Below, piece after piece: positions 1,762 through 1,885 of a DNA stretch of 9,434 bases. Source of the DNA: Escherichia coli (lineage in GTDB: Bacteria > Pseudomonadota > Gammaproteobacteria > Enterobacterales > Enterobacteriaceae); the NCBI RefSeq assembly GCF_003334255.1, contig NZ_QOWU01000088.1. The stretch is one strand, 5' to 3'. The notes beneath the pieces were generated by a model. That model was not told the DNA's origin, did not search any database, and saw only the letters and a program-made list of their open reading frames with translations. The position numbers and the translations under genes are program-made. Within the stretch, counting starts at the first letter, position 1; each line of letters begins with the position of its first letter.

Positions 1762-1790
1762 AAAAAAATCCCGACCCTGAGGGGGTCGGG
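1762..1790 (-). terminator. DsrA intrinsic terminator (GC-rich stem cccgacc / ggtcggg plus U-tract); may also stop convergent yodD transcripts
   Basis: GC-rich hairpin at 1770-1790 followed on the minus strand by a run of 7 U (plus-strand A's at 1762-1768). This is the known third stem-loop of DsrA. Confidence 0.85.
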
Positions 1791-1852
1791 ATGAAACTTG
1801 CTTAAGCAAGAAGCACTTAAAAAATTCGTTACACCAGGAAATCTGATGTGTT
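1766..1852 (-). ncRNA. dsrA: DsrA small regulatory RNA (Hfq-dependent; activates rpoS translation, antagonises hns)
   Basis: Reverse complement of 1766-1852 reads AACACATCAGATTTCCTGGTGTAACGAATTTTTTAAGTGCTTCTTGCTTAAGCAAGTTTCATCCCGACCCCCTCAGGGTCGGGATTT, matching the recalled 87-nt DsrA sequence over its full length. Confidence 0.95.
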
Positions 1853-1856
1853 CATC

Positions 1857-1885
1857 ACCTTATCCGCAATTTTTTTCGCTGACAA
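1857..1885 (-). promoter_or_regulatory. dsrA promoter: -35 TTGTCA, 17-bp spacer, -10 TAAGGT
   Basis: Minus strand reads TTGTCA (1880-1885), a 17-nt spacer, then TAAGGT (1857-1862), ending about 5 nt before the DsrA 5' end at 1852. Consistent with the known temperature-regulated dsrA promoter architecture. Confidence 0.7.

Follow-up and report, generated by a model that had tools for sequence, protein, structure and literature searches.

The intact small RNA gene carried by the stretch of DNA analysed here, a window of 9,434 nt, is with a probability of about 0.93 the canonical dsrA locus of Escherichia coli, lying in its usual place and in the majority allele of the species. It is a known gene, in a common allele and in a known position, which carries no lineage-specific signal. 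What the window establishes about the gene is its identity, its structure, its synteny and its conservation at the levels of the genus and the family. Few bacterial small RNAs have been studied as thoroughly as DsrA, and the copy described here has the usual allele and the usual location, so that the finding by itself matters little. The useful outcome is a negative one, where a short non-coding gene that stays intact amid partial decay is what a null model predicts and not evidence of selection, and where most of the supposed decay in its vicinity corresponds to alleles that are common in ordinary E. coli.

Identity, structure and promoter of dsrA

The gene and its elements, all of them on the minus strand, are the following.

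1762-1852, minus strand: dsrA small RNA gene (91-nt extent of the K-12 annotation; Rfam match at 1766-1852)
1831-1849, minus strand: stem-loop 1 (RNA nt 4-22), from the fold, within the region that pairs with the rpoS leader
1794-1827, minus strand: stem-loop 2 (RNA nt 26-59) with an A/U-rich linker on its 5′ side, from the fold, identical to K-12
1762-1792, minus strand: stem-loop 3, a Rho-independent terminator, from the terminator scan and the fold
1862-1857, minus strand: -10 hexamer TAAGGT, read from the sequence, identical to K-12
1885-1880, minus strand: -35 hexamer TTGTCA, read from the sequence, identical to K-12, with a 17-bp spacer to the -10 hexamer
1898, minus strand: position -46, the only promoter-proximal difference from K-12 and a polymorphic site in E. 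coli

The covariance model of DsrA (Rfam RF00014) matches positions 1766-1852 of the minus strand over its full length (model positions 1-85 of 85), with 102.5 bits against a gathering score of 60 (E = 2.3e-19). In a scan of the whole 9,434-nt window this was the sole Rfam match above threshold, and neither RprA nor ArcZ was found in the window by the same scan. A permissive scan added only matches at chance level, with the next-best families far under their thresholds. Three of these candidates were set aside as chance or terminator-driven matches, all of them far below their gathering scores: anti-hemB (25.7 bits) and the Betaproteobacteria toxic sRNA (21.7 bits), which both overlap dsrA, and mir-374 at 1119-1184.

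As K-12 reference, the MG1655 locus NC_000913.3 2021000-2036000 was aligned with the window. The MG1655 dsrA gene (NC_000913.3 2025223-2025313, 91 nt) corresponds to window 1762-1852 with 0 differences, and it forms part of a longer K-12-identical run at 1519-1897 (379 nt), which includes all of yodD. Over the whole alignment, the window and K-12 differ at 136 of 9284 aligned nt (1.46%). A preliminary description of this DNA recognised the element as DsrA with its terminator and promoter, and this assignment holds on the strength of the RF00014 score of 102.5 bits, the terminator scan and the K-12-identical promoter boxes. The alignment of 1766-1852 to K-12 dsrA gave the zero substitutions that it had predicted, on the minus strand, which it had left unstated.

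The minimum-free-energy fold of the RNA forms stem-loops at nt 4-22, 26-59 and 61-85 and ends in UUUUUU. Its energy is -31.9 kcal/mol (z = -5.7), and 0 of 200 shuffled sequences folded as well. These elements follow a published mutational map of DsrA, where bases 1-27 are rpoS-sensitive, bases 28-60 are hns-sensitive and those from 61 onwards form a target-independent module for termination and Hfq (PMC4231740). In the window, the rpoS-leader-pairing region (nt 1-27) lies at 1852-1826 and is identical to K-12, as is the hns-pairing region (nt 28-60), which is carried by stem-loop 2. The terminator is made of a 10-bp G+C-rich stem with a 5-nt loop at 1792-1768, followed by a T-run at 1767-1762, as found by both the terminator scan and the fold. 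A classical bidirectional terminator that would also serve the convergent yodD gene was considered and rejected, as the plus strand reads GAAACTTG after the hairpin, with no T-run.

Upstream of the gene, the dsrA strand reads CTTGTCA GCGAAAAAAATTGCGGA TAAGGT GATG, then A at +1. The +1 position falls at 1852, with 4 nt between it and the -10 box. The earlier claim that the -35/-10 promoter equals that of K-12 was correct, since positions -1 to -45 show no differences. At -46, the dsrA strand of the window carries A, where K-12 has G and other E. coli have C. Its neighbour -45 also varies in E. coli, and from -45 to +91 the sequence is invariant or nearly so. A generic sigma-70 scan did not call the dsrA promoter. 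This miss is explained by the -10 box TAAGGT, which matches just 3 of 6 consensus positions, and it is not counted against the promoter because this box is known to be non-consensus. The promoter of K-12 dsrA has reportedly been mapped experimentally by Repoila and Gottesman in 2001 and 2003, where the boxes and the spacer are said to carry the temperature response. Both boxes are also conserved over enterobacterial loci in a cross-genus alignment, as 'cttgTca' for the -35 and 'gataa.Gt' for the -10. The putative promoter of the window is called on this conservation across genera, together with the identity to K-12 and the reported mapping.

Neighbouring genes and lesions

The gene order rcsA - dsrB - yodD - dsrA - yedP is the same as in K-12 and in E. 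coli MLI023K1, an isolate from a stool sample from Mali. The latter is the closest record to the window, with 100% identity over positions 78-9434. The features around dsrA are as follows.

1-77: right end of IS1
78-217: last 140 nt of fliR, joined to IS1 at 77/78
507-1130, plus strand: rcsA, intact 207-codon ORF, H67/H70 allele
1174-1362, minus strand: dsrB, intact, 62 aa, with no amino-acid change relative to K-12
1525-1752, plus strand: yodD, intact, 100% identical to K-12, convergent with dsrA
2051-2866, plus strand: yedP, full-length
2863-4557, minus strand: dgcQ, Q312*, with the stop at 3619-3621
yodC, yedI, yedA, vsr and dcm: full-length
8923-9351: 3′ fragment of yedJ (142 aa), truncated beside IS1
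9361-9434: left end of a diverged IS1 copy, whose junction with the truncated yedJ side lies at 9360/9361

The preliminary description had set an intact dsrA and an intact rcsA against a window that otherwise shows gene decay. The part on rcsA is right, its 207-codon ORF running uninterrupted from 507 to 1130. The part on decay was overstated, as 9 of the 12 protein genes are intact (rcsA, dsrB, yodD, yedP, yodC, yedI, yedA, vsr and dcm), and the lesions in dgcQ and yedJ are common alleles. The three damaged genes are fliR, interrupted by IS1, dgcQ, with its premature stop, and yedJ, with IS1 at 9361. The dgcQ stop splits the CHASE7 sensor part from the GGDEF domain, and the resulting 311-aa product is recorded in 9475 index blocks, from genomes where both fliR and yedJ are intact. 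It is a common E. coli allele, not a sign of lineage-specific decay. The 142-aa YedJ fragment next to IS1 was found in 14837 index blocks, here too in ordinary E. coli whose fliR is intact, so that this junction is very widespread. Both lesions are thus widespread in ordinary E. coli and only the IS1/fliR junction is unusual, with no full-length identical match in the 5426 complete RefSeq E. coli genomes. The 33-aa FliR tail beside it was matched only by short metagenome contigs that stop at the same point, and these are uninformative.

Several further observations concern this neighbourhood. The two IS1 ends (1-77 and 9361-9434) bracket the window in direct orientation. In MLI023K1, IS1 beside yedJ is followed by a 5′-truncated hchA, so that drpB, yedS and the small RNA gene rseX are missing there; should the genome of the window be the same at that point, a neighbouring small RNA gene would have been lost while dsrA was kept. 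The 142-aa YedJ fragment represents this deletion allele. The RcsA protein of the window differs from that of K-12 by two substitutions, R67H and L70H, and equals RefSeq WP_000103987.1, annotated as RcsA in other strains. This H67/H70 allele is common to 8 of the 17 other E. coli loci examined. Four of the five nucleotide differences from K-12 in rcsA fall within 30 nt (686, 706, 707 and 715) and give rise to R67H and L70H, and the same codons 60-70 (window 686-715) show L70F or N64Y in other E. coli. Judging from these substitutions, positions 686-715 appear to be a small hypervariable patch within an otherwise conserved regulator. On the other side of dsrB, the coding sequence of yodD, whose stop codon lies 9 nt from the end of dsrA, has 0 variable sites among 19 E. 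coli loci, against 3-8% variation in the flanking intergenic DNA. Near dsrA, variation is highest in the dsrA-yedP intergenic region, with 14 of 165 variable columns among E. coli, and it is there that the window carries a 1-base insertion of C relative to K-12, at 1985.

Conservation, natural loss and the case for selection

The 87-nt dsrA sequence of the window is found, letter by letter, in 4974 of 5426 complete E. coli genomes (~92%). A dsrA match is present in 5339 of them and absent from the other 87. Because the same sequence occurs in about 92% of the complete genomes of the species, there is no excess of conservation to be explained in this one. An earlier comparison of 27 E. coli and Shigella genomes also classed DsrA as a core sRNA, although its target rpoS was present in only 22 of the 27 (PMC3318445). 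Among 22 Escherichia loci, dsrA and its core promoter have 8 variable columns out of 124, compared with 96 out of 370 in the flanking intergenic DNA (Fisher p = 9e-7). Five variable columns lie within the RNA, all at 1769-1793, a stretch made up of the terminator stem-loop and the single base that precedes it. Beyond the genus, 52 GTDB species representatives carry a 25-nt rpoS-pairing core without a mismatch; they span at least 12 enterobacterial genera (Citrobacter, Enterobacter, Salmonella, Buttiauxella, Lelliottia, Leclercia, Pseudocitrobacter, Superficieibacter, Siccibacter and Franconibacter, among others). As the cross-species loci were retrieved with this exact 25-mer, the invariance of nt 4-28 in their alignment is in part built in. 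Across species, four pairs of the terminator stem have undergone compensatory changes. Taken together, these patterns of variation argue for a purifying selection on dsrA that is real, but old and broad, and acts on the family as a whole.

Selection on dsrA had been suggested before for this DNA, and the general part of that suggestion stands, as indicated by the contrast between 8 of 124 and 96 of 370 variable columns, while its attribution to this lineage is unsupported. At a divergence of 1.46%, zero differences would arise by chance with a probability of 0.26 over 91 nt and of 0.16 over 124 nt. With 300 random IS insertions in a 4.6-Mb genome, a hit within 124 bp has a probability of 0.8%, leaving the gene to escape in more than 99% of cases. 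The intactness of dsrA in the window is the outcome of family-wide purifying selection, low divergence and a very small mutational target, with nothing particular to this lineage.

Natural losses of dsrA do occur. In E. coli B-1109 (NZ_CP117971.1, ~3066-3845 of the extracted locus) an IS1 element sits inside the gene and makes a natural dsrA-null; the duplicated target of 9 bp, AAAAATTCG, lies in the linker that separates stem-loop 1 from stem-loop 2. In E. coli F41 (NZ_CM135134.3, ~2930-3001 of the extracted locus), another natural dsrA-null, an IS1 end adjoins position -1 of dsrA, and from +1 leftwards dsrA, yodD, dsrB and rcsA are replaced by a ybcL-ybcM region. The 87 genomes of 5426 without a match, together with IS1-disrupted copies in at least two genomes, indicate that dsrA is dispensable in some backgrounds. 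These losses do not rescue the argument for selection in one lineage, because the expected rate of loss is low for so small a target.

That argument would see in the window a decaying, Shigella-like genome that keeps dsrA and its promoter by lineage-specific selection, through a DsrA-RpoS/H-NS node that feeds into virulence genes silenced by H-NS. H-NS does silence Shigella virulence genes, and if the idea were true a cold-induced RNA acting against H-NS would be tied to thermoregulated virulence. The IS1-rich character of the genome, with IS1 ends at both borders of the window, the disruption of fliR at a junction absent from the 5426 complete E. coli genomes, and the ability of IS1 to destroy dsrA in nature, as in B-1109 and F41, which makes loss possible and retention not absolutely forced, could all be read in its favour. 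However, a sequence shared by ~92% of the complete genomes of the species, a chance of 0.16-0.26 of finding zero substitutions and an escape above 0.99 from 300 IS insertions leave retention uninformative about any single lineage, and the contrast with decay is weak when 9 of the 12 neighbouring protein genes are intact too and the dgcQ and yedJ lesions occur commonly in E. coli. Moreover, DsrA is made mainly at low temperature (PMC8544407), where the virulence genes of Shigella are off, and a full-text literature search found no published test of DsrA on these genes. We regard lineage-specific retention as very improbable, and the inference from retention to selection in this lineage, as drawn in the preliminary description, is not supported. 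Its link between DsrA and H-NS-silenced virulence genes is speculation, on which the window has no bearing. Even harder to credit is a related proposal, in which an IS1-rich, possibly Shigella or EIEC, lineage would have given DsrA a new lineage-specific role and kept it for that reason; such a role might be, for instance, to adjust how strongly H-NS silences genes of the virulence plasmid as the bacteria pass from ambient to body temperature. The sequence itself speaks neither for nor against this role.

Somewhat less improbable, though still unlikely, is that dsrA is intact yet idle, that is, that too little time has passed to hit an 87-nt target in a genome whose pathway is already broken elsewhere, for example by a defective rpoS. 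The DsrA-RpoS/H-NS node could indeed be broken at another site, given that the rpoS leader, hns and hfq all lie outside the window. The same arithmetic of small target and low divergence would suit an idle gene, and so would the variable presence of rpoS (found in 22 of the 27 genomes surveyed; PMC3318445) and the tolerance of some backgrounds to the loss of dsrA, seen in the 87 of 5426 E. coli without a match and in at least two genomes disrupted by IS1. On the other hand, with both RNA and promoter deeply conserved across the genus and the family, a functional gene is the default assumption, rpoS is not the sole target of DsrA, and the window offers no sign of a broken pathway. The canonical, ordinary dsrA locus is the reading that we retain.

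Predicted function and comparison with known systems

For this strain, we infer transcription, temperature control, Hfq dependence and target regulation from the work on K-12. By identity with the latter, dsrA would be driven by a sigma-70 promoter whose activity rises in the cold, and DsrA transcription is known to be higher at low temperature and to fall after a shift to 37 C (PMC8544407). The expected product is an Hfq-binding RNA of ~87 nt with three stem-loops, of which the third would act as the terminator. Nucleotides 1-27 would pair with the rpoS leader and open its inhibitory hairpin, activating the translation of RpoS, and nucleotides 28-60 would pair with the hns mRNA and lower the synthesis of H-NS. 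A lower level of H-NS would in turn relieve, indirectly, the silencing of rcsA and of other H-NS targets. Transcription of rcsA is silenced by H-NS, and this silencing is relieved by the overproduction of DsrA. It was reportedly through this relief of rcsA silencing that Sledjeski and Gottesman discovered DsrA in 1995.

The closest known system is dsrA of E. coli K-12 MG1655 (b1954), which is 100% the same over the 91-nt gene and over the promoter from -1 to -45, and which has the same orientation and the same neighbours, with rcsA, dsrB and yodD on one side and yedP on the other. It differs from the window by a G at -46, where the window has A, by the lack of the extra C found further upstream in the dsrA-yedP spacer (window 1985), and in its wider context, given that the window has IS1 in fliR and in yedJ. 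The DsrA RNAs of Salmonella, Citrobacter, Enterobacter, Buttiauxella and other Enterobacteriaceae share with it the architecture of three stem-loops, an identical 25-nt core, ACATCAGATTTCCTGGTGTAACGAA, the conserved -35 and -10 boxes and a terminator stem with compensatory changes. The differences concern the first 3 nt, the lower part and the loop of stem-loop 2, within the hns-pairing region, and the sequence of the terminator stem and loop. A more distant likeness is that to RprA and ArcZ, which are described like DsrA as Hfq-dependent activators of rpoS translation that open the inhibitory hairpin by an anti-antisense mechanism (PMC3783183, PMC8544407). These two RNAs are unrelated to DsrA in sequence, have loci of their own elsewhere and are induced by other signals.
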